From: an uncultured Candidatus Pelagibacter sp.
GTDB lineage: Bacteria > Pseudomonadota > Alphaproteobacteria > Pelagibacterales > Pelagibacteraceae
DNA length: 64,000 nt
Assembly (NCBI GenBank): GCA_905616465.1
Contig: CAJQSX010000005.1
Location: forward strand, 14,994 to 78,993
Direction: 5' to 3'
How positions within the stretch are numbered: position 1 is the stretch's first letter; every line of letters starts with the position of its first letter. The notes under the pieces were generated by a model. The model saw only the letters and a list, made by a program, of their open reading frames with translations, had not been told where the DNA came from and made no database searches. The translations under genes were made by a program, and so were the position numbers. Positions 4,394 to 58,006 of the stretch are shown here, piece by piece.

Positions 4394-5305
4394 ATGAAAA
4401 AAAATGTAATTGTTTCATTAGCAGATGCAAATTATTTTCCATTACTAGAAGAGTTAGTAGAATCTATTAAAAGATTTAAAGAGAGTGACAATATTGCAAT
4501 TTGCATTTTAGATGCAGGGTTAACGCAAGAGCAAAAAAATAAATTATTAAATAAAGTAGATGAAATAAAATCAGCTGAATGGGATATAGAAGTACCGGAC
4601 CATAAAGTAAAAGGTAAGGAATGGTTAAAAAGTCAGGTCTCAAGAGCATTTTTGCCAAAATACTTTCCTAATTATGAAAAATACTTATGGATAGATTGTG
4701 ATGCATGGGTAAATGATTGGCATTGTGTAGAATTATATTTTAAAGCCTGTGATAATGGAAAACTAGGTATCACGCAAACGATTGGTCCAGGATACAAAAT
4801 AACTTCAAAAGTTAATTGGTTAGTTGGAAAATTAGCAATTGTTAAATCTCAAAACTTTAAGCATGCCGTAAAGTCAAAAATTGGATATGATAAAGCCAGA
4901 AAATTAGCTTTTGCACCACATATAAATATTGGAGTGTTCTCACTAGAAAAAAACTCTAAAGGATGGAGTTCTTGGCAAAATAATTTATCAAAGACTTTAA
5001 AAGCTGGAAATATTTTTGGATCAGAGGGATTGGCAATTAATATATCAGTATATATTGATGATTTAGAAACAGAATTTTTACCTTTAAACTGCAATTGGAT
5101 TACTAGTAATTTACTTCCAAAATATGACGAACAACAAAAAACATTTGTTGAACCTTATTTACCTAATTATAAAATAGGTATAATGCATCTTGCGGCTGGA
5201 ATTTGGAAAGATGGTAAAGACATGAGGGTAGACAAAGATGTGAAAATTAAAATTGAAAACTTAAATAAAATAACAACACTTAAAAGTCTTAGATATAATA
5301 ATTAA
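4394..5305 (+). CDS. Putative GT-A fold glycosyltransferase (GT8-like)
   Basis: N-terminal ADANYF, YLWIDCD (DxD motif), INIGVF, CNW and C-terminal IMHLAAG resemble GT8-type enzymes. ATG directly abuts the pssA stop. Confidence 0.6.
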   Translation: MKKNVIVSLADANYFPLLEELVESIKRFKESDNIAICILDAGLTQEQKNKLLNKVDEIKSAEWDIEVPDHKVKGKEWLKSQVSRAFLPKYFPNYEKYLWIDCDAWVNDWHCVELYFKACDNGKLGITQTIGPGYKITSKVNWLVGKLAIVKSQNFKHAVKSKIGYDKARKLAFAPHINIGVFSLEKNSKGWSSWQNNLSKTLKAGNIFGSEGLAINISVYIDDLETEFLPLNCNWITSNLLPKYDEQQKTFVEPYLPNYKIGIMHLAAGIWKDGKDMRVDKDVKIKIENLNKITTLKSLRYNN

Positions 5306-40108: not shown

Positions 40109-40522
40109 TTAAAACTTAAGGTAAGCTTTCTTTAAATCTACAAGAGGATGTTTGGGAGACATTTGGAATTTAACTAAAAGTTCTCTAGCAATCATGTCTC
40201 TATCTTGTTGGTTGTCAGGTAACTTGATAGACTTTGGAATTGTAACCCAACCATTAGCATTTCTACAAAATACAGCAGGTCTATCTTCTTCATAGCCCAT
40301 GTGAATATCTTCCAACCAATTAAGATCATCCCAGCCCATAGCTTCTATATATTTTTTCAAGAATGGAGTAATCTTTTTATAGTCAGGCAATAAGTTAACA
40401 TCATATCTATATCCGATATGTTGACCAATTAGTTTCTCTCTTGCTGTTTCTTTAAAAGTACCAAGTTTTAGTTTTTTTTCTTTTTTAACTTTGCTTTTAG
40501 CTTTTGTTTTTTTCTTAGCCAT
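40109..40522 (-). CDS. Hypothetical protein, last gene of the mgs cluster
   Basis: 137-aa ORF 8 bp after mgsC; Lys-rich N-terminus followed by a globular-looking domain. Confidence 0.7.
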   Translation of the reverse strand: MAKKKTKAKSKVKKEKKLKLGTFKETAREKLIGQHIGYRYDVNLLPDYKKITPFLKKYIEAMGWDDLNWLEDIHMGYEEDRPAVFCRNANGWVTIPKSIKLPDNQQDRDMIARELLVKFQMSPKHPLVDLKKAYLKF

Positions 40523-46727: not shown

Positions 46728-47078
46728 TTAGAAGCTTAGATTTTTTAGGGTTTGAAGGTATAAACTAAACTCATCAATAAAAGATTTGCTTGGTTTTATA
46801 AATTTTTTTCTTTGATCTTTAGAAGTCTTTTCTAAAAAAAAAAATCCTTTTTCACATGCCTCATTAATCATTAAAGCTGATTTAGGCCTAGATGTTTTAA
46901 ATAATTTTGTTTTTAGTTCTTCAACAGTTAAATGTTCTTCATATTTAAAAGCATGCATAACTAACAACATCATATGATAATGTGATGGTGATTTTCTAAA
47001 AAAATAATTACTAGACATATGAGAGAGCTTCATTTGATCTTCCCAAAATTCTAATAAGTCTTTTGTAGTATTACCCAT
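46728..47078 (-). CDS. Putative winged-helix (MarR-like) DNA-binding protein
   Basis: LTVEELK...TSRPKSALMINEACEKGFF...DQRKKFI resembles HTH plus wing (DxR); TAATG-coupled to tdm. Confidence 0.5.
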   Translation of the reverse strand: MGNTTKDLLEFWEDQMKLSHMSSNYFFRKSPSHYHMMLLVMHAFKYEEHLTVEELKTKLFKTSRPKSALMINEACEKGFFFLEKTSKDQRKKFIKPSKSFIDEFSLYLQTLKNLSF

Positions 47079-49417
47079 TAAGCTCTGACACGAGTTTTTT
47101 GAGGGTCGAAGTGAGGAAACCCAACAACTTTTGCTGGTATTCTTTTTTGATGACCATCAATTTTCCCGACCTCAACATCTGTACCGATTTCTGATTGACC
47201 AACATCAATTCTACATAAAGCAATGTTCTTACTCAAAGTTGGTGATAGACACCCACTTGTTACAATACCAATTTGAGCTCTTCCAATGTGAACACAATCT
47301 CCATGATTAGCTTTTTCTTTTCCAATTAGCTCAAGCCCAACTAATTTTTTTTGTGGATTTTCTTTTCTTTTAATCAAATTCTCTTTACCAATAAAGTCGT
47401 CAGTTTTTGTTTTAAGTGGCACGGCAAATCCAATACCTGCTTCAAAAGGATCTTGTTGACCATCAAACTCATTACCAAATAAAACTAACCCTGCTTCAAT
47501 TCTTAATAAATCTAGAGCACCAAAACCTGCTGGTATCAAACCTTCATTTTTACCTGCCTCCATTATCTTATCCCAAACTTGAGGAGCATGATCAGGATGA
47601 CACCAAACTTCATACCCAAGTTCTCCTGTATAACCAGTTCTTGATACGATTAATGGAATTCCATTTAACTCTTCAAGTCTACAAATTGTGAATCTAAACC
47701 ACTGTAGTTCTGAAATTGTTGGTTGAGTAGGGGGTGTAAAAATTATTTTTTCTAAGATTTTTCTACTGTTTGGTCCTTGCACAGAAATATTGTTAATTTG
47801 ATCTGTCGAATTCTTGATTATGACTTTAAAGTTTTTCTTTTTTGCTTGTTCTTTTAACCATTCTCCAGCATATTCATCTCCACAAACCCATCTAAAACCT
47901 GTTTCACTTAGTCTTAACAAAGTACCATCATCAAACATTGTACCATTTTCATAACACATTGCTGAATAAACTATTTGGCCAACAGATAGTTTTTTAATGT
48001 TTCTTGTTAAAGTGTAATTCATTAATTCCTCAGCATCAGGCCCTAAAATTTCAAATTTTCTTAAAGAAGATAAATCAATTACAACTGCCTTTTCTCTACA
48101 GGCGGTATACTCATTAATAATACCGTGTTTAGTATAGTCATTTGGTAACCAAAAACCTCGAGCGTCAATAAAGTTTCTAGTTAGTTTTGAGGTTCTTTCA
48201 TAAAAGCCTGTATTTCTAGTAAGTTTTTTTTCAGAGTCTGTTTTCATTCTAAAAGCAAAAGATTTTGTAAATTCTTTTTTCTTGTCATAAGTTCTAACAA
48301 AAATATCAGTTGGATTCCAACCATTACAGCTATCAATATCACTAGGACAAGCAGTTGTGCCGCAAGTCAAGTCTTTAAGGGCTCTAAAGATAATATAATC
48401 GCCAGGTCTTGCAAAAGATTCATCTGATAGCACAGAGTTTTGACCTCCTGCAGAGGTGTTAAAGAACAAGTTAATCGCATGCCAACCTCTTTGTTTTTGA
48501 AGACCATATTTTTCCATTACTTCATTTAAATTGTCAGAACAATTTGCATGACCAAAATATCCCGCATCTTCATAATATTTCGAGGTACATGCTAAGTTAA
48601 ATGTATCATGAATACCCACTGTGTCTCTCACTACCTCGACAAGTGGTTCATGGTCTACGTCATAAAACTTTGAAAATAAGCCTGGTCCGGGAAAAGTTTG
48701 CCCCATAAAAGTTCTAGTTGTTTGCCAGTCTAATCCATTTTCTTTTCCTTTATCTAATTTAGCAGTATCGTATGCTACAAAGTCTGAACATTGTCTCCCT
48801 GTAGGAGTAATTATTTGAATATAATCACCTTCTTTAACTTGGTAAGAATTTGCAGTAGTTCTTTCAATATTGATTTCATTAGAAGGATCATAAACAGGGT
48901 CTGGAATTATAGAAAATTCCTTATCATCTTTAATAATAGATTTCTTTACCATTACAGTAAGTTCAGTTGCTGGATTCTGTTCATGAACCATCATTCCATT
49001 TCCTGGTGCCGCAAAGATACAATAACATTTATCTTTTGATCTTATTTTAATACTGTCACCAGCATTTGTTTCTTTATTAAAAATTATAGATGATTTTGAT
49101 TTTTCAATATTTAAGTTTCGTTTTTTTAATTGCAGTAAAGCCTGCAAAGAAGTTTCATCTTTTTTAAAAAGTATTTTTTTAATCTCAGATATATCTTTAA
49201 TTTTTTTTAAACCTAAAATATCAAGATCAGATTTTCCATCTTTATTAAAAACTGAAATTTCACAAATTTGATTACCTTCATTATTGATGATTTCTATTTC
49301 ATCATCTGGTAAAATTTGAATTCCAGTCAATCCACCACCTTCAACAATATATCTTTCAACTCCAGGTGGTAGCGAATTTAATCCTGGTTCATTAATATCT
49401 AAAGTAGTTAGCGACAT
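47078..49417 (-). CDS. tdm: Trimethylamine N-oxide demethylase (DUF1989 + GcvT fusion)
   Basis: GRQCSDF, HDTFNLAC..KYYED.GYFGH.NCSDN, ACPSDID; C-terminal GcvT domain (DLSSLRKFEILGPDAE, RTGYTGELGYE, LRIEAG); divergent from tmoX. Confidence 0.9.
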   Translation of the reverse strand: MSLTTLDINEPGLNSLPPGVERYIVEGGGLTGIQILPDDEIEIINNEGNQICEISVFNKDGKSDLDILGLKKIKDISEIKKILFKKDETSLQALLQLKKRNLNIEKSKSSIIFNKETNAGDSIKIRSKDKCYCIFAAPGNGMMVHEQNPATELTVMVKKSIIKDDKEFSIIPDPVYDPSNEINIERTTANSYQVKEGDYIQIITPTGRQCSDFVAYDTAKLDKGKENGLDWQTTRTFMGQTFPGPGLFSKFYDVDHEPLVEVVRDTVGIHDTFNLACTSKYYEDAGYFGHANCSDNLNEVMEKYGLQKQRGWHAINLFFNTSAGGQNSVLSDESFARPGDYIIFRALKDLTCGTTACPSDIDSCNGWNPTDIFVRTYDKKKEFTKSFAFRMKTDSEKKLTRNTGFYERTSKLTRNFIDARGFWLPNDYTKHGIINEYTACREKAVVIDLSSLRKFEILGPDAEELMNYTLTRNIKKLSVGQIVYSAMCYENGTMFDDGTLLRLSETGFRWVCGDEYAGEWLKEQAKKKNFKVIIKNSTDQINNISVQGPNSRKILEKIIFTPPTQPTISELQWFRFTICRLEELNGIPLIVSRTGYTGELGYEVWCHPDHAPQVWDKIMEAGKNEGLIPAGFGALDLLRIEAGLVLFGNEFDGQQDPFEAGIGFAVPLKTKTDDFIGKENLIKRKENPQKKLVGLELIGKEKANHGDCVHIGRAQIGIVTSGCLSPTLSKNIALCRIDVGQSEIGTDVEVGKIDGHQKRIPAKVVGFPHFDPQKTRVRA

Positions 49418-49516: not shown

Positions 49517-50485
49517 ATGAAAAATAAAACATTACCGATAATTCTTGGTGTTGTTGTTATCGCTGTTGCCGTTTTCTTCATGAGTGGAGGAGATAAAAGT
49601 GCTAAAAAAGGTGGTGATAGCTCTCAACCTATAATTATTGCCACACATAACTGGTCAAGCCAAATTGTAATGGCTCACGTTATTGGTGGAATTTTTGAAA
49701 GCATGGGAAATAACGTAAGCTATGTAAACACTGACTCACAAGCTGTATATGAATCAATTCGTATTGGTGACGTATCACTAGCTCATGAAGTTTGGGAATC
49801 TGCTTTTGGTAAATCATTCACTACAGCACTTGATAAAGGTGGCATAGTTGATTGGGGTGATCATGAAGCAAGAACTCTTGAGGATATGGGTTATCCTAAC
49901 TGGGTTGCTGATAAGGGACTATGTCCTGGTCTTCCAGATTGGACCGCACTAAAAAATCCAGATTGTGCTGCAAACTTTACAACACCTGATTCAGATGGAA
50001 AAGGAAGAATGTTAGAAGGTCCACAATCTTGGCACGGAGATTTAATACCTCAGAGAGTTGATGCTCTTGGGTTAGGAGATCTTTGGACAGTTAAATTTGC
50101 TGGAAGTGCAGATGCACTTTGGGCAGAACTTAAAGCTGCTGAGAAAGAAGGAAGAGGAACTATAATATTCAACTGGACTCCAAACTTTACGGATGGAAAA
50201 GGTTTTACATTTATAGACTTCCCTCCATACTCTGCTGGTTGTAGACCAGAAGATGGCGGTGATGGAAAATGTGGATCTCCAGATGGTTATTTGAAAAAAG
50301 CTGTTAACGCAGACTTTCCAACAACTCATCCAGCTGCAGCAGCAGTGTTTAAAAAGATGTCATTCTCAACAAGTCATATTGGAGCAATGGCTGCTTTAGT
50401 AGACGAAGATAAGATGACTCATGAAGATGCTGCGAAAAAATGGTTAGCAGACAATAAGAGTGTTTGGCAACCTTTTACCAAGTAA
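49517..50485 (+). CDS. tmoX: TMAO ABC transporter substrate-binding protein (OpuAC family)
   Basis: HNWSSQIVM, DSQAVYESIR.GDV..HEVW, CPGLPDW, FNWTPNF; divergent from tdm. Confidence 0.85.
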   Translation: MKNKTLPIILGVVVIAVAVFFMSGGDKSAKKGGDSSQPIIIATHNWSSQIVMAHVIGGIFESMGNNVSYVNTDSQAVYESIRIGDVSLAHEVWESAFGKSFTTALDKGGIVDWGDHEARTLEDMGYPNWVADKGLCPGLPDWTALKNPDCAANFTTPDSDGKGRMLEGPQSWHGDLIPQRVDALGLGDLWTVKFAGSADALWAELKAAEKEGRGTIIFNWTPNFTDGKGFTFIDFPPYSAGCRPEDGGDGKCGSPDGYLKKAVNADFPTTHPAAAAVFKKMSFSTSHIGAMAALVDEDKMTHEDAAKKWLADNKSVWQPFTK

Positions 50486-50503
50486 GGGTAAAGAATAAAT
50501 TAT

Positions 50504-50538
50504 AATCTCTCCCAACAAAATTGGGGGAGATTTTTTTT
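50504..50538 (+). terminator. Intrinsic terminator after tmoX
   Basis: AATCTCTCCCAA-caaaa-TTGGGGGAGATT followed by a T tract. Confidence 0.85.
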
Positions 50539-50585
50539 AATTATACTGTCTTATAAAGAATTCAAACTACGGATTTATTATTTAA

Positions 50586-51029
50586 ATGATTAAGTATTTT
50601 TTATATCTCTCTCTTAGCTTGCTAACTTTAAAAGCATCTTTTGCACAAAATATAGACATACAAGAAGATATTAAAATTGACTTTGTATGCGAATTAGAAA
50701 AAAAAATTCTTAAGAATTCAGAATATAATTATCAAACTTTTTTTGCTAATGATTTAAATGAAAAAAATTTAGACAAATTTGAAATTGATGCACAACAGCC
50801 AGAAAAACTTTTGATTAATGGATTATCAATGTTCCTTTCAAAAAATATAGAACTAGATGTAAAAGTTGTAAACAAAGATATAGTTTTATTTAAAGCTTTT
50901 GATAAGGAAAAGAATTATTCAGAATCTGGAATAATTAATAGAAAATCAGGTGAATTAGTTCATGAAATTACAAAAAACATAAAAAGTGATAATTTTGAAA
51001 AAGACATTTCCTTTTATAAATGTAGTTAA
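50586..51029 (+). CDS. Exported hypothetical protein
   Basis: Signal peptide (..ASFA); two Cys; INRKSG motif near the C-terminus. Confidence 0.65.
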   Translation: MIKYFLYLSLSLLTLKASFAQNIDIQEDIKIDFVCELEKKILKNSEYNYQTFFANDLNEKNLDKFEIDAQQPEKLLINGLSMFLSKNIELDVKVVNKDIVLFKAFDKEKNYSESGIINRKSGELVHEITKNIKSDNFEKDISFYKCS

Positions 51030-51038
51030 AATAAAAAC

Positions 51039-51413
51039 ATGAAAAAATATATTTTTTATATAATTCTAAGTTTTTTAATTACAACTTCAGTGTCAGCTAG
51101 AAAAACGGGTTGTGAGGGAAACTGTGAAAATGGTTTTGGTAAATGGACTTATACAGACAAAACTACTTATGAGGGTAATTGGGTTGGTACACAGAAACAT
51201 GGGCAAGGAATTGAAACTTGGCCTAATGGATACATTTACAAAGGTGAATTTAAAAAGAGTGAGTGGAGTGGGCAGGGAATTTTAACCTTTCCTGATGGGT
51301 CTATTTATGAAGGTGAATGGGCCAATGGTTTTATGAATGGAAAAGGCAAATTTATTTGGTCTGATGGAAAAGAAAAAATAGGAATTTGGAAAAATGGCAA
51401 ATTAAAAGAATAA
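51039..51413 (+). CDS. Exported MORN-repeat protein
   Basis: Signal peptide; C.GNCENG.G; repeats YEGNW..G..HGQG, YKGEF..G.G, YEGEW.NG.MNGKG. Confidence 0.85.
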   Translation: MKKYIFYIILSFLITTSVSARKTGCEGNCENGFGKWTYTDKTTYEGNWVGTQKHGQGIETWPNGYIYKGEFKKSEWSGQGILTFPDGSIYEGEWANGFMNGKGKFIWSDGKEKIGIWKNGKLKE

Positions 51414-51415
51414 TT

Positions 51416-51970
51416 ATGAATATAAGATATTTTAGCAAGTTAAGAGAATTATTGCCTGAGCCAGTTAGACAGTTGGGTGGCCTTGTTTCCTTAATATTTG
51501 TTGTGATTTTTTCTTTTGCTATTTTAAATGTTTTTTTTGGTGAAGGTGATGAATTGGTTGAAAAAATGAAAAAAGAAGAAACAAGAATTGCAGAAGCCAA
51601 TAAACTAAGTAAAATTATTTCCACACTTCCGTCTGGTATTTTAACTTTTTATGAAGGAAGTGGAAATTACAAATTATCTAAAGAACAATATGAAACAGTC
51701 TGCAAAATAACAAAAATTATTCCTCAACGTGCTGTTATGGGCGCTAATTTAATAAATTTTAAAGCTACACAAATATATAATACTAATGGAAATCAAATAG
51801 CCGAAACATTTGTTAATTGGGATAAAAAAGAAAAAAAATGTATTGCTGGTTTTGTTTTAATAGGAAGTGTTAATGGTGGAGAAAAAGACAAAATTACTGT
51901 CAGTGGGGAAGTTTTAAATTTTTTAAGCACAGGAATCGATACAAGAGTTTATTTTATTAAAAATTTTTAA
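51416..51970 (+). CDS. Hypothetical membrane-anchored protein
   Basis: ORF track starts at TTG 51386; the ATG at 51416, 2 bp after the MORN gene stop, is the likelier start. One TM helix. Confidence 0.65.
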   Translation: MNIRYFSKLRELLPEPVRQLGGLVSLIFVVIFSFAILNVFFGEGDELVEKMKKEETRIAEANKLSKIISTLPSGILTFYEGSGNYKLSKEQYETVCKITKIIPQRAVMGANLINFKATQIYNTNGNQIAETFVNWDKKEKKCIAGFVLIGSVNGGEKDKITVSGEVLNFLSTGIDTRVYFIKNF

Positions 51971-52043
51971 GGAGGAAAATAATAATTACAGAAAATTTAA
52001 AAAGTGTATTTTGTTTTTATATCGTGTAACTTATTAATTTATT

Positions 52044-53075
52044 ATGACTAATGCTGTAATTAAGTGTGATTCAGTTTACAAAATTTTCGGGGTAAACGCA
52101 AAAAAGATGCTCCAAGATGCCAACGGAAATGTGGATGCAAAAAAATTTCAAGATAATGGGTGTATAGTAGGTGTAAACAATGCTTCTTTCGAAGTTTTAA
52201 AAGGAGAAATGCTAGTTGTGATGGGTTTATCTGGATCAGGAAAATCAACATTATTAAGATGCATTTCCAGATTAACAGATGCTACTAGTGGAAAAATTTT
52301 TATAGAAGGTCAAGACTTACTTTTATTAAACAATAAAGAGTTAATTGATCTTAGAAGAAATAAAATGGGAATGGTGTTTCAAAGTTTTGCTCTACTTCCA
52401 CATAAAACAGTTTTAGAAAATATTGCTTTTCCACTTCAAATTAAAGGCATTGAAGATCAAGAGAGCATCAATAAGGCTATGGACATGGTTAAACTTGTTG
52501 GCCTTGATGGAAGGGAAAATTATTTTCCAAGAGAGCTTTCTGGGGGACAACAGCAAAGAGTAGGTATTGCTCGCTCATTAGCAGTTGAACCTGATATTTG
52601 GTTTTTAGATGAACCTTTTTCTGCATTAGATCCTTTAATTAGAAAAGAAATGCAGGATGAATTTTTGCGACTTCAAGAAAAATTACAAAAAACAATTATG
52701 TTTATTACACATGATTTTGACGAAGCATTAAAGCTTGCTGATCGTATTGCAATTATGAAAGATGGAATAATTGAACAATTAGATACCCCAGCTAATATTG
52801 TATTAAACCCTGCAACGGAATATGTCAGGAAATTTACTCAAGAGGTACCTAGAGAAAAAGTATTGAAAATAGAAGATATTATGGAAAAACCACATAATGA
52901 AAATTTAAGTGATTTAAAAGTTTTGAAAAATGAAACAATCGAAAATGTAGCTGAAAAGATTTTAACTCAAGAAAAATCTGTAGGAGTAATTGATGAAAAT
53001 AATCAAATTGTTGGAACTGTTCACCCTTCAAAAATAATTAATACTGTTTTTGGTGGAAAAAAAAATAGCGATTAA
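52044..53075 (+). CDS. tmoW: TMAO/betaine ABC transporter ATP-binding subunit (ProV/OpuAA family)
   Basis: MGLSGSGKST, VFQSFALLPH, LSGGQQQRVG, DEPFSALDPLIR. Confidence 0.85.
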   Translation: MTNAVIKCDSVYKIFGVNAKKMLQDANGNVDAKKFQDNGCIVGVNNASFEVLKGEMLVVMGLSGSGKSTLLRCISRLTDATSGKIFIEGQDLLLLNNKELIDLRRNKMGMVFQSFALLPHKTVLENIAFPLQIKGIEDQESINKAMDMVKLVGLDGRENYFPRELSGGQQQRVGIARSLAVEPDIWFLDEPFSALDPLIRKEMQDEFLRLQEKLQKTIMFITHDFDEALKLADRIAIMKDGIIEQLDTPANIVLNPATEYVRKFTQEVPREKVLKIEDIMEKPHNENLSDLKVLKNETIENVAEKILTQEKSVGVIDENNQIVGTVHPSKIINTVFGGKKNSD

Positions 53076-53078
53076 AAT

Positions 53079-55232
53079 ATGGAGCTAATAAAAAAAAATC
53101 CAAAATTATTTCAATGGTTATTTTTATTAATTGTATTTTTCTTTTTATGCTTTGCAATTGAAGTTCCTGAAACCTACAAATTTATAAGAGGTCAGGCCGA
53201 ATTCATTAAAGACCCAAATCAAAGCACTTACACACTCTTTGGAGCAGAGGTAAGATATTACGCATTTGATGTTTTTTGGAGGTTGCCTCCTCTACTTGGG
53301 TGGCTGCCTATTTGGATAAATGATTCCTTATTTTTTTTAATGAACGAGTGGATGCCAATGGAGTTTTGGAATGAAAGTACTCAATCATACAAAACTCGAC
53401 CCCTAATTTTGCAATTAACAAGAAACATGACTGCGTTTATGACATTTCTTATCGAACTAATTAGAGAAATTATGTTAGGGGGTGTTCAAACTGTCGTTGC
53501 ATTTACTAGCTGGGACTGGATAGATGCAAATCCATGGGCAAAGCTGCCAGGGTTACCTTGGACAATTGTTGCAGCGGGTGCTGTAATACTTGGATACAAC
53601 TTAAGTGGTAAAGGTCTAGCGTTATTCGCTGGTATAGTTATGATTTATATTTCTATTTTTGGTCAATGGAAACCTTCAATGCAAACACTATCCTTTATAT
53701 TAGTTGCAGCACCACTTTCTTTTATTTTTGGTTTGGGCCTGGGTATTGCAGCGTTCAAAAGTAAACGTGTTGAGAAATTCTTATCCCCAATCCTTTTAGT
53801 TATGCAAACTATGCCTCAATACGCGGTATTAGTTCCCGCAATCGTGCTTTTTGGTGTTGGTGACCATGCGGCTGTTATTATAACAATGGTTGTTGCCGTT
53901 CCTCCAATGATATTATTAACTCTATTAGGTCTTAGAGGAATACCTCCTGAAATTGCTGAAGCTGGTAGAATGAGTGGATGTAATAATTGGCAACTAATGT
54001 TCAAAGTATTAATTCCAACTGCAAGAAGAGACATTTTAATTGGAGTGAATCAAGTTATTATGGTGTGTTTTTCTATGGCAGTTATTTCAGCTTTTATAGG
54101 TGCGAAAGGATTAGGATTTAATTTGTTGTTAGCTTTAAATCAATTGAACATTGGATTAGCATTAGAGGCAGGTTTATGTATTAGTTTAATTGCAATACTT
54201 TTAGATAAAATGTCTTTAGCTTGGGCAAATAAACAAATTGATTACTTTGGTAACTTGACTTTTTTTGAGCAACATAAAAATGGATTGTTTTTTGCTGGTG
54301 CAGTATTAATTGGAATTATACTTGCCTACGCTGGATCATTTTATTTTAAAGAAGGCTTCAATTATTTTTTTGAAGTTCCACACAATAAAGGAATATCTAC
54401 AGCAGATTTTTGGAATAGAGGTGTTGATTGGATTTGGGACACTTTCTTTCATACTTTAAAAATTTTTAACACATGGTTGATAGTAGATGTATTACAGCCC
54501 ATGCGTGCTGCCTATCTACGGATGCCTATTGTTGCAACATTCGTTTTAGTCATGGGTGCTGGATATATAATTGGAGGAATACGTTCTGCTTTTGTAGTGG
54601 GTGCATTAACATTATTTATAGCGCTAAGTCCATGGTGGGATAGAGCTTTAGTTACTACTTACATGGCAACATTTGGAGTTATTATATCTTGTACAATTGG
54701 ATTTACTGTTGGAACATTATGTTTTCAGAATAAATATACTACAAATTTTATGTTGGGCGTTTGTGATATATTTCAAACATTCCCTTCATTTGTATACTTG
54801 ATACCAGTGATGATGCTTTTTGGTGTTACGGATACATCTGTGTTAATTGCAGTAGTTGTTTATGCCACCATTCCTGCCACAAGGTATACTATTGAAGGAT
54901 TGAGAAGTGTACCAGCCGCTTTACATGATGCGGCTTCAATGTCAGGTGTAACAAAAATACAAAGATTAATGAAAATAGAATTTCCTTTAGCCTTTCCTCA
55001 CATGATGCTTGGTTTAAATCAAACCATTGTATTTGCTTTATTTATGGTAATTATTGGAGCGTTTATTGGAACAGAAGATTTGGGACAGTACATTCTAAAA
55101 GCTTTATCTGACAAAAAAGGTGCAGGTATAGGATTAACGCTAGGTCTTTGCGTTGCTTTCATAGGCTTGGTATTTGATCATCTAATTCGAACTTGGGTAG
55201 GGCAAAGAAAAAAACATCTTGGTATTGATTAG
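53079..55232 (+). CDS. tmoV: TMAO/betaine ABC transporter permease, two fused ProW-like domains
   Basis: Duplicated motifs MQTMP.Y / FQTFPSFVY, EAGRMSG / DAASMSG, GVNQ / GLNQ. Confidence 0.85.
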   Translation: MELIKKNPKLFQWLFLLIVFFFLCFAIEVPETYKFIRGQAEFIKDPNQSTYTLFGAEVRYYAFDVFWRLPPLLGWLPIWINDSLFFLMNEWMPMEFWNESTQSYKTRPLILQLTRNMTAFMTFLIELIREIMLGGVQTVVAFTSWDWIDANPWAKLPGLPWTIVAAGAVILGYNLSGKGLALFAGIVMIYISIFGQWKPSMQTLSFILVAAPLSFIFGLGLGIAAFKSKRVEKFLSPILLVMQTMPQYAVLVPAIVLFGVGDHAAVIITMVVAVPPMILLTLLGLRGIPPEIAEAGRMSGCNNWQLMFKVLIPTARRDILIGVNQVIMVCFSMAVISAFIGAKGLGFNLLLALNQLNIGLALEAGLCISLIAILLDKMSLAWANKQIDYFGNLTFFEQHKNGLFFAGAVLIGIILAYAGSFYFKEGFNYFFEVPHNKGISTADFWNRGVDWIWDTFFHTLKIFNTWLIVDVLQPMRAAYLRMPIVATFVLVMGAGYIIGGIRSAFVVGALTLFIALSPWWDRALVTTYMATFGVIISCTIGFTVGTLCFQNKYTTNFMLGVCDIFQTFPSFVYLIPVMMLFGVTDTSVLIAVVVYATIPATRYTIEGLRSVPAALHDAASMSGVTKIQRLMKIEFPLAFPHMMLGLNQTIVFALFMVIIGAFIGTEDLGQYILKALSDKKGAGIGLTLGLCVAFIGLVFDHLIRTWVGQRKKHLGID

Positions 55233-55603
55233 TTAAAATACTCAACTTCAGAAAAAGTATTTGTTGGAAAAATCCAATAAAATTCCAATGTTTCTTTTCC
55301 AATATTTTTTAAAGCATGTTTTGCATTTCCCGCAATATAAACTACATCACCTTTTTTAATTTCTTCTAGCTCACCAGATTTATTTAATATTCCTTTTCCA
55401 TTAGTAACCACGTATATTTCTGCAGGCGAATGATAATGGAGTGTCAAGTCACCACCTGGAGCAATTTCAGCAAAACCAAGTGAAAGTCCAGAGCTACCAA
55501 TAAAATCTGCATCAATTAAGAATTTCCACCTAACACCAGGATATTTATCAGTTGTCGACCATTTTTGGTCAGAGACAGATTTAAGATTTTTTACAAATAT
55601 CAT
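55229..55603 (-). CDS. dddK: Cupin DMSP lyase DddK
   Basis: YPGVRWKFLIDAD, GLSLGFAEIAPGGDLTLHYHSPAEIYVVTNG, LEFYWIFP, FSEVEY closely match recalled Pelagibacter DddK; H56, H58, E62, Y64, H96, W110 and Y122 are all present. Confidence 0.9.
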   Translation of the reverse strand: MIFVKNLKSVSDQKWSTTDKYPGVRWKFLIDADFIGSSGLSLGFAEIAPGGDLTLHYHSPAEIYVVTNGKGILNKSGELEEIKKGDVVYIAGNAKHALKNIGKETLEFYWIFPTNTFSEVEYFN

Positions 55604-55622
55604 GTAAAATCAAGCTTATGGA

Positions 55623-56963
55623 TTATTTTTTAGGTTGATCTAAAAATGTTTTTAAAGAATCGTCCATTGCAACTTCCCAGGCTGTATGATGCTTTGGACC
55701 AATTGATCCAGTTACAGGTGAAGAAAAAGACTTATTTCTATAGGTCATAATATTTTCTACTTTATGGTGTTCCCATTCTTTAAAAGTTTTTCTAATCAAT
55801 TCAAAATCAATTTTTGGATAATCAGATAAAGTATGAAGCTCTTTTGTATACTCAGTCTGAAAATCTATCATTTGATCAGCACTTTCTAATTTTTCTTCCA
55901 TCGATACCCATTTATTTATATCTTTTTCTATTTCTGAACTATCTGGAAGTTTAATCTTTCCCATTATAACATCTCTTGCAAACCAAGCCTGACAATCAAA
56001 CATATTAAAAGTATGAAATTGATCTTGCATACCTAGATATATTAATTTGTGATTATTTTGCCAAACAACACCTTTATACAACCTTGGTGGATACAGTCTA
56101 TTTCCTGTTTTTAATTTTAAGTCTTCAGATAAAAAAGGAAAATGATGAAGGTACCCTGTACATAGAATTACAGCATCTGCTTCCTGAACATGACCATCCT
56201 TAAAAATTGCTTTATTGCCTTCAAGCCTATCAAGGTGAAAAACTTCTTTCATTCCTTTTGGCCAATTAAATCCCATTGGATTATGTCTATAAGCTATTGT
56301 TACACTTTTTGCTCCATACTTATGACACTGAAGAGCGACGTCTTCTGCGGAATAACTACTTCCTAAAACAACTACATTTTTATCTCTAAATTCTTCTGCA
56401 TCTCTAAAATCATGAGAGTGCATTATTCTTCCAGGAAAAGCTTTCATTCCAGGATATTCTGGAATGAACGGAACTGAGAAATGACCATTAGCTATAATAA
56501 CATAATCAAAGACATCCATTGAGGAAGTTGCGTTTTTTTTATCACGATAAGTAACTTCAAAATTATTAGCATTATAGATAACATTAGTAACTGTAGTGCT
56601 AAACTTTATTTTGTTTTTTAAATTCCCTTTTTTTACTCTACCCAAAATATAATCATATAAAACTTCTCTAGGTGGAAATGATGGAATGGGTTTTCCAAAG
56701 TGTTCATCAAATGAATAGTCAGCAAACTCTAAACATTCTTTAGGGCCGTTTGACCAAAGATATCTATACATACTATTAGGTACAGGGTCACCATATTGAT
56801 CAGATCCTGTTCTCCAACTGTAATTCCATAAACCGCCCCAATCTTCTTGTTTATCAAAACAAACTATTTCAGGTATTTTTTCGCCTTTTTTCTCAGCTTG
56901 TTCAAAAGATCTTAAAGCTGACAAACCACAAGGCCCAGCACCGATAATTGCCACTTTAGTCAT
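55623..56963 (-). CDS. tmm: Trimethylamine monooxygenase (bacterial FMO)
   Basis: GAGPCG, WGGLWNYSWRTG, SMYRYLWSNGPKECLEF, FPGRIMHSHDFR, GSSYSAED, GMQDQFHTFNMFD. Confidence 0.92.
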   Translation of the reverse strand: MTKVAIIGAGPCGLSALRSFEQAEKKGEKIPEIVCFDKQEDWGGLWNYSWRTGSDQYGDPVPNSMYRYLWSNGPKECLEFADYSFDEHFGKPIPSFPPREVLYDYILGRVKKGNLKNKIKFSTTVTNVIYNANNFEVTYRDKKNATSSMDVFDYVIIANGHFSVPFIPEYPGMKAFPGRIMHSHDFRDAEEFRDKNVVVLGSSYSAEDVALQCHKYGAKSVTIAYRHNPMGFNWPKGMKEVFHLDRLEGNKAIFKDGHVQEADAVILCTGYLHHFPFLSEDLKLKTGNRLYPPRLYKGVVWQNNHKLIYLGMQDQFHTFNMFDCQAWFARDVIMGKIKLPDSSEIEKDINKWVSMEEKLESADQMIDFQTEYTKELHTLSDYPKIDFELIRKTFKEWEHHKVENIMTYRNKSFSSPVTGSIGPKHHTAWEVAMDDSLKTFLDQPKK

Positions 56964-57043
56964 AAATTAATCTCCATAAAATAAATTTATAACTACATTT
57001 TGCTCACAAAATGCTAAAAAAAGATATAAAAAAATTATCCAAT

Positions 57044-58006
57044 ATGAAAAAAATTATTATTATTGGTGGTGGTGCTATGGGGTCAGCTTTTACAATCCCA
57101 TGTTTAGAGAATAATAATAACGTTACTATCACAGAACCTTATAGCAAGAGATTTATTAAAGATCTATCATCAAAAAATAAATTTCATTCAGCCTTAAACA
57201 TTAAGCTTCCAAAAAGATTAAAATTTAAAAAATTTTCTAAAGATTTATTTAAAGAAAAATTTGACCTAATCGTAATTGCTTTAAGCCTCTCAGGTATTGA
57301 TTTTATTGGTAAAGAACTAAAAAATTTAAAGATTAAAACTCCAATCTTAGTTCTTACAAAAGGATTAAAGTATGAAAAAAAAAGTAATAGAATTTTAACA
57401 ATTTCAGAGCAATTAAAAAAAAATTACAGTGGAATGAATATATCTGTTTTGAAAGGCCCTTGTTTAGCCAAGGAACTTGCTGAAAAAAATCATACAAGCG
57501 TAGTTATTGCTAATAAAAATATCAATGTTGCTAAATCGATTGGAAGAATAATTTCTACAAAATATTATATTACTGAATATTCTAAAGATATTATTGGTGT
57601 GGAGGTGTGTTCAGCTATAAAGAATATATATTCAATGATAATTGGAGCTGGCCAAAGTTTAAATGCATCATCCAATTTATTTCAAAAATCAATAATTGAG
57701 ATGAAATATTTAACTAAATATTTTAAAGGAAAAGATGAAACAACTTTGGGACTTGCTGGGATTGGGGATTTATATGTGAGCGCTGCTGGAGGAAGAAATA
57801 GTAAAATGGGCAGTTATTTAGGTAAAGGCTTTACATTTAAAGTAGCAAAAAAAAGATTTATGCCAAAAGATACTGTTGAAGGTGAGCAGCTTGCACGAGA
57901 AATTGCCCCGTTCATTCTTAAAAAAATTGATAAAAAAAAGATTCCTTTAATGAATAATTTATTAAGAACGATAATAAATAATAAAAAACTTAAAATTAAA
58001 GTTTAA
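57044..58006 (+). CDS. gpsA: NAD(P)H-dependent glycerol-3-phosphate dehydrogenase family protein (divergent)
   Basis: [44 protein letters not shown]. Likely start ATG 57044; ORF track gives 57011. Confidence 0.65.

Follow-up and report, generated by a model that had tools for sequence, protein, structure and literature searches.

An intact dimethylsulfoniopropionate lyase gene, dddK, behind tmm in Candidatus Pelagibacter: a recurrent layout and a possible operon formed by promoter capture

The gene dddK, encoding a predicted lyase of dimethylsulfoniopropionate (DMSP) and dimethylsulfoxonium propionate (DMSOP), lies directly behind tmm, encoding a predicted trimethylamine (TMA) monooxygenase, in a 64,000-nucleotide stretch of DNA from an uncultured Candidatus Pelagibacter sp. 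(contig CAJQSX010000005.1 of assembly GCA_905616465.1; this whole stretch is called the window). The explanation favored here, with a confidence only a little better than even, is that an intact dddK sits behind tmm in most of the dddK-bearing genomes examined, that it has become the second gene of the tmm operon by promoter capture, and that the link is regulatory and provides no channel for dimethyl sulfide (DMS). It draws on the recurrence of the layout and on the gap between the two genes, which aligns with a promoter-like element found before dddK copies that stand alone.

Judged by their sequences, neither protein stands out from the known family to which it belongs. The window DddK matches the solved DddK structures PDB 6A53 and 5TFZ at E values of 5.8e-72 and 7.9e-72, with 110 of 123 aligned residues identical (89%, counted by hand on the alignment), and the next family of matches appears only at 3.4e-10. 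Its metal ligands H56, H58, E62, and H96 and tyrosines Y64 and Y122, all retained in 43 of 43 tmm-linked copies, together with pocket residues Y21, W26, F108, W110, and F117, make up the full list of 11 metal, catalytic, and pocket residues taken from PMC10686828. The window Tmm matches Tmm7211 (PDB 7D4K) at an E value of 2.6e-265, scores 743.8 bits on NCBIfam NF058570 (cut-off 675), and keeps 19 of the 20 Tmm7211 residues that bind flavin adenine dinucleotide or NADP, the sole exception being E37D. These matches bear out the gene identities proposed in an earlier sequence-only reading of the window, and the coordinates agree with its placement of dddK 19 bp behind tmm on the same strand, with a 4-bp overlap (55229-55232) between the stop codons of dddK and a convergent permease gene. 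Because the trimethylamine N-oxide (TMAO) demethylase gene tdm scores above its cut-off nearby, the region is a methylamine island. The source genome also encodes dmdA above cut-off (G000:C2:72445-73548), so that both DMSP routes are present; a second dddK or its remnant was not found in this assembly, which is 67% complete and lacks the fabI-pnp region.

The layout recurs. Among 401 Pelagibacter genomes searched, 36 carry dddK and 256 carry tmm. In the 36, dddK lies behind tmm in 20, between fabI and pnp in four, beside a yajQ-like gene in three, beside an egtD-like gene in eight, and at a contig end before the permease gene in the remaining one (the names fabI, pnp, yajQ-like, and egtD-like are readings of the sequences, given without family searches). 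The tmm-linked site is thus the commonest of four main dddK sites, and it accounts for 8 of the 14 dddK genomes that are at least 90% complete, 30 of 55 genomes pooled from three overlapping searches (an unpublished genome, G606, is left out of the 55 and is the basis of no claim), 43 of 77 distinct full-length dddK copies, and 69 of the best-matching 80 among 297 metagenome contigs (a sample biased towards the query). Six distant cupins from other phyla (L127-L132) were excluded from all counts. The sequence-only reading had proposed a survey of dddK neighborhoods, in which the layout is now seen to recur beyond chance. Gap length is 19-20 bp in 35 of the 43 distinct linked copies, and the link is kept where a 16-kb cassette replaces the downstream neighbor (8 of 43) and where tmm is of a second type, its product 58% identical to the usual one (6 of 43). 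Beyond the genus, dddK was found in none of 214 genomes from 18 other genera of the same family and in 1 of 60 genomes of a second family, both tallies taking in G606; the layout is widespread within one genus.

Evidence for promoter capture comes from comparison of the gap with the region before 15 stand-alone copies of the same dddK lineage, chosen by hand from nine genomes and six metagenome contigs. All 15 carry TAAGAT, TATGAT, or TATTAT at positions -11 to -6, leaving five bases to the ATG, and a TTTAAA consensus stands 17 nt upstream of this -10-like hexamer; the match to the sigma-70 consensus suggests that the element is a promoter. In 22 tmm-linked copies whose stop codon occupies the equivalent position, the gap can be aligned gap-free to the element (64% match versus 33% when shuffled), the tmm stop being the TAA of the former promoter spacer, and the stretch further upstream, at the -35 position, is tmm coding sequence (31% match versus 36% when shuffled). 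The A at hexamer position 2 has been lost in 21 of these 22 copies. The window gap is one base shorter than those compared, and its -10 hexamer is degenerate; no Shine-Dalgarno-like site precedes dddK in the window, and neither a terminator-like hairpin nor a stable fold was seen in its gap (fold z = 0.09), consistent with the sequence-only reading. In wider sets, stand-alone copies show an excess of the -10-like hexamer (24 of 32, versus 11.9 +- 2.6 when shuffled), and tmm-linked ones do not (12 of 43, versus 15.6 +- 3.1). In one genome, G489, the 16-kb cassette lies between tmm and dddK, and dddK there has a -10-like hexamer.

The sequence-only reading had also held that the gap leaves no room for a separate promoter. 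Since the gap is homologous to a compact element whose -10-like hexamer stands 5 nt before the ATG, that argument is invalid, but the conclusion that dddK probably lacks its own promoter survives because the window hexamer is degenerate. Promoter decay in the gap supports a likely co-transcription of tmm and dddK, which the same reading had considered, and dddK is likely transcribed from the tmm promoter. On this account, an ancestral dddK that brought along a compact promoter would have landed between tmm and the convergent permease gene; the 3' end of tmm would then have run into the promoter spacer, after which the -10 hexamer would have decayed, leaving dddK dependent on tmm transcripts. 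As dddK is likely the second gene of the tmm operon by such promoter capture, the link is likely regulatory. One promoter would serve two enzymes of methylated compounds, with DddK supplying acrylate and DMS, or dimethyl sulfoxide (DMSO) from DMSOP, and Tmm feeding TMA into the Tdm route; most of the DMS produced would still exit the cell.

The same gap might instead, together with the 3' end of tmm, harbor a weak dddK promoter, inducible by DMSP as in the reference strain Candidatus Pelagibacter ubique HTCC1062, whose dddK is induced by DMSP and DMSOP (PMC10686828). Descent of the gap from a promoter-like element is consistent with such independent transcription, as are the 12 linked copies that keep the hexamer, and the absence of a Shine-Dalgarno-like site before the window dddK is expected for a leaderless message. 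With the -10 broken in the window gap as well as in 21 of the 22 comparable copies, tmm coding sequence at the -35 position, and no terminator between the genes, independent transcription is nonetheless very unlikely. Under the favored explanation, the linked dddK copy may not be inducible by DMSP or DMSOP.

Four marine metatranscriptomes from four studies, compared as contigs, bear on read-through (figures from 32 of the 1463 pieces listed). Among the matches listed, contigs bridge the gap by at least 31 nt on both sides in three of the four runs, and in the fourth they extend 30 and 29 bases into dddK. The contigs are 85-95% alike to the region and hence come from relatives. The bridging contigs fit read-through but are no demonstration of a single transcript. 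The divergent gap between gpsA and tmm on contig L061 was tried as a control and rejected: it showed no cover at 4578-4631 in any of the four runs, with both flanks covered in three and one contig ending 7 nt before the tmm start, but repeats were skipped at 4557-4587 and a break in contig cover is no proof of anything, and it is not counted as evidence.

Control of the pair would then reside upstream of tmm, where a palindrome-like 16-bp box is present, whether or not dddK follows tmm, in 72 of the 73 distinct upstream regions compared, at a palindromicity of 0.61 versus 0.36 +- 0.02 for shuffled sequence. The box may be an operator, and it hints at a regulator without naming the signal; methylamine-responsive control of DMSP cleavage, which the sequence-only reading had envisaged, is conjectural. 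No high-scoring match precedes other island genes among the best 40 of 154 genome matches, and the box pointed to no regulon: of the 11 next-best genome matches checked, 7 fall inside open reading frames (ORFs). Roseobacters are reported to show methylamine dependence (work cited in PMC8498191), and SAR11 bacteria lack DmdR, their control of DMSP catabolism being left open in the accessible text of PMC12992908. Two island ORFs, at 46728-47078 (116 aa) and 40109-40522 (137 aa), have no Pfam or NCBIfam match; the former lies directly behind tdm and could, by its position, encode a regulator.

A more direct bond between the two enzymes was suggested by the sequence-only reading, according to which Tmm oxidizes the DMS that DddK makes and so lowers net DMS release, perhaps keeping the sulfur as DMSO. 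Several observations favor a pair kept for this reason. Tmm7211 oxidizes DMS in vitro (PMC8498191), and the window Tmm shares nearly all of its cofactor-binding residues; HTCC1062 used DMSO as a sulfur source (PMC10686828); tmm is present in 35 of 36 dddK genomes and in 221 of 365 others, although kin are not independent; the link occurs with two Tmm types; and in two genomes with both sites it is the fabI copy that is broken. The kinetics point the other way. Tmm7211 turns over DMS slowly (kcat 4.5 per min, KM 250 uM) and is 9 times less efficient on it than on TMA (PMC8498191), and DddK cleaves DMSP at 2.1 per second with a Km of 13.6 mM (PMC10686828 Table S1). In a first-order model using these published constants of relatives, an assumed cell of 0.025 cubic micrometres, and a DMS permeability of at least 1e-3 cm/s, likewise assumed as for a small neutral molecule, predicted capture of self-made DMS by Tmm is at most 1.8e-3 even at 1 mM Tmm; only with a permeability near 1.6e-6 cm/s would 100 uM Tmm capture 10%, and DddK would outpace Tmm per copy at DMSP concentrations of at least 1 mM. 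By this estimate, a coupled DMSP-to-DMS-to-DMSO module falls short of capture under free diffusion, and the predicted capture is so low that Tmm could act as a real sink for the cell's own DMS only if it were much faster or if the DMS were handed over directly. The claim of lower net DMS release is thus at odds with the model. DddK also cleaves DMSOP more efficiently than DMSP, yielding DMSO directly (PMC10686828); in genomes at least 90% complete, tmm occurs in 14 of 14 with dddK and 44 of 59 without (p = 0.059); and five genomes lost the tmm-linked copy and kept the fabI copy. On these grounds, retention of the pair for DMS oxidation is doubtful. Prediction of a complex of two DddK with Tmm gave a median of 0.31 (runs 0.31, 0.00, and 0.42) against a mark of 0.32, with controls at 0.00, 0.00, and 0.00, and is evidence neither way. 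A bolder combination is that, in most dddK-bearing Pelagibacter, DMSP cleavage has been rewired to the tmm promoter and box, DMS output follows a methylamine or nitrogen signal instead of DMSP, to which the reference strain responds, and Tmm beside or bound to DddK turns part of the DMS into DMSO as a sulfur source; this we regard as speculative and rather improbable.

The distribution of dddK sites over an rpoB tree of 73 genomes gives some insight into the age of the link. Genomes with the fabI site all fall in a single subclade of 13, which includes linked genomes as well; of the 10 genomes in the same clade but outside this subclade, nine have dddK directly following tmm (one of the nine, G030, counted as linked by inference from a contig end), the tenth pair being split by the cassette. 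Median dS is 0.66 among linked copies and 0.29 among fabI copies, and linked copies are under purifying selection, with a ratio of nonsynonymous to synonymous substitution (dN/dS) of 0.11 across 43 copies. Scars of dddK are also found: 6 of 22 dddK-free tmm loci hold its last 40-50 bases, scoring above all 200 shuffles, and a fabI copy is present in five of the six genomes concerned, the tmm-linked copy having been lost and the other kept. Conversely, the fabI copy contains two stop codons in G562 and lacks residues 18-81 in the genome of contigs L071 and L124, the linked copy being intact in both; in G739 both reading frames are open. This distribution, the deeper divergence, and the scars and broken copies indicate that in this rpoB clade the tmm site likely predates the fabI-pnp site and that duplicates can disappear from either one. 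On its own, the dddK gene tree (partial copies L122 and L124 left out) cannot order these events, as linked copies fall in an open fork; their grouping as one clade is not rejected (p-AU 0.54) and not shown. The sequence-only reading had entertained a relocation into the island; a recent relocation in the source genome is rejected, and a genome-specific one finds no support, given that the linked layout is in the majority, deeply diverged, and spread across the rpoB clade, with the fabI site limited to one narrow subclade. The same reading was right that dddK of the reference strain is not beside tmm. The scar allele (window 55255-55625) also occurs in contigs of two of the RNA runs alongside the intact allele, placing both states in the same communities.

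This history also leaves room for a neutral passenger, in which the end of tmm is simply a recombination-prone site in a mobile block and dddK is kept for its own activity, any promoter being sufficient. The multiplicity of dddK sites (four main ones and several rarer) and the loss of duplicates at either site agree with this, and the same junction elsewhere holds the 16-kb cassette, gpsA, or a methyltransferase-like ORF. The block from the binding-protein gene to tmm has itself likely moved: its DNA is 84-96% identical to five loci of another lineage and 78-85% identical to six loci with the gpsA type of this genome, gpsA shows the opposite pattern, and none of the 72 other rpoB genes exceeds 84% identity to that of the source genome, so that the block at 49517-56963 likely entered this lineage as a unit, one of its edges lying between tmm and gpsA. 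Against a mere passenger stand the age of the link, its majority state, and its persistence when either neighbor changes, and we judge this alternative unlikely. A decayed dddK promoter makes breaking the link costly, however, and persistence alone therefore does not separate the neutral passenger from promoter capture.

Several points weigh against promoter capture as set out here. The link is dispensable, as the scars show; 16 of 36 dddK genomes lack it, and only 20 of the 256 tmm-bearing genomes show it, tmm having no need of dddK. The dddK copies are kin, so that the counts overstate independence. Retention of a -10-like hexamer in 12 of 43 linked copies means that promoter loss is no clean rule, and the RNA contigs, besides coming from relatives, are unstranded and may hold DNA.

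The coordinates of the pair and of neighboring features are collected in Table 1. The transporter genes match only ProX/ProV/ProW-like families; we take them to be those named tmoX, tmoW, and tmoV. No Rfam family was found at 36000-64000 of the window.

Table 1. Features of the tmm-dddK region, in window coordinates
Feature	Position	Strand	Remarks
dddK, cupin DMSP/DMSOP lyase (activity predicted)	55229..55603	-	124 aa; from similarity and residues; dN/dS 0.11 among 43 tmm-linked copies
Gap between dddK and tmm	55604..55622	-	19 bp; apparent decayed remnant of promoter-like element; without -10-like hexamer, Shine-Dalgarno-like site, or hairpin
tmm, trimethylamine monooxygenase (activity predicted)	55623..56963	-	446 aa; stop codon aligns with spacer of former dddK promoter-like element
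Putative tmm expression signals	56972..56991	-	GGAG at 56972-56975 and TATAAA -10-like hexamer at 56986-56991; from sequence and 73 distinct tmm upstream regions
Palindrome-like 16-bp box, candidate operator	56997..57012	.	About 50 nt before tmm start; 72 of 73 distinct upstream regions
Convergent ATP-binding cassette (ABC) permease	53079..55232	+	717 aa; ProW/ChoW-like, below cut-offs; stop overlaps dddK stop
Rest of the permease's transporter	49517..53075	+	Substrate-binding protein 49517-50485, three small ORFs, ATPase 52044-53075
tdm, TMAO demethylase	47078..49417	-	NF053776, 1119.6 bits (cut-off 1100); methylamine island marker

Further observations concern the neighbors and relatives of the pair. 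The second Tmm type (L080:4637-5974, L089:4640-5977, and L239) is closer to the Methylophaga-type flavin-containing monooxygenase and stands at the usual site in six genomes; G176 carries both types, each in a different location. Next to tmm, the gpsA-like gene (57011-58006) likewise exists in two types, about 45% identical, at the same site. The 16-kb cassette, located between tmm and dddK in G489 and between dddK and the permease gene in G562 (L156:1622-17609, L159:760-16232), encodes a second betaine-type ABC transporter and several oxidoreductases and looks like a locus for carnitine or betaine catabolism. Contig L322 and one further contig show the mixed layouts fabI-dddK-permease and tmm-dddK-pnp, which reflect either recombination between dddK copies or assembly chimeras. 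An intact stand-alone dddK (L094:6001-6381) comes from a record titled as from deep Lake Baikal, and a contig titled Flavobacteriaceae (L067) carries a Pelagibacter tmm-dddK-transporter block at 87-95% identity and is likely misbinned.

The DddK reaction releases DMS, a climate-active gas, and knowledge of dddK expression rests on a strain that has the gene elsewhere than in the island. Should the tmm promoter drive dddK in the commoner layout, an abundant ocean lineage would release DMS in step with nitrogen or methylamine signals, and findings made on the reference strain could not be extended to linked strains. For the linked, unlinked, split, and two-copy layouts, named strains with complete genomes are available, which makes the question directly testable. 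The promoter relic and the scars would also show clearly how, in a streamlined genome, an operon arises and gene copies are lost reciprocally. Neither the two enzymes nor the idea of DMS-to-DMSO conversion is new, which limits the surprise; the tmm-dddK arrangement is new as far as the literature search reached. No published description of this adjacency was found in a search that did not reach the figures and supplements of all key DddK and Tmm papers, and the main text of PMC12421898 and of bioRxiv 10.64898/2026.10.07.757358, as far as accessible, mentions neither dddK nor tmm.

Among known systems, the closest counterpart of the window DddK is that of HTCC1062 (PDB 5TFZ, 6A53-6A55, and 8HLF), with which it shares 110 of 123 residues and 11 of 11 site residues. 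The window protein is six residues shorter than this 130-aa type, which is confined to 7 fabI-site copies among the 77 distinct ones; the shorter C-terminus remarked on in the sequence-only reading is real insofar as the reference type is longer, but it is nothing special, 70 of the 77 being 124-127 aa. The window gene lies behind tmm within the methylamine island, whereas the reference gene, SAR11_0394 (PMC5395565), is far from the island of its strain, SAR11_1304-1317 (PMC3870248); compared with stand-alone dddK copies, the window dddK lacks their promoter-like element. Tmm7211 of Pelagibacter sp. HTCC7211, a class B flavin monooxygenase acting on TMA, dimethylamine, and DMS, has the same residue numbering as the window Tmm, which keeps N72 and D314, has D in place of E37, and is followed by dddK; its activity is predicted from sequence. 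Co-occurrence of Tmm with DMSP lyases was reported, and proposed to channel DMS to DMSO, by Wang et al. 2021 (PMC8498191) and Teng et al. 2021 (PMC8520302), whose accessible text reports presence in the same genome and not adjacency, an operon, or promoter loss. Shared control of DMSP genes is also seen in the DmdR-controlled DMSP catabolism of Roseobacters (PMC12992908), whereas in the window the link would be to the tmm promoter.

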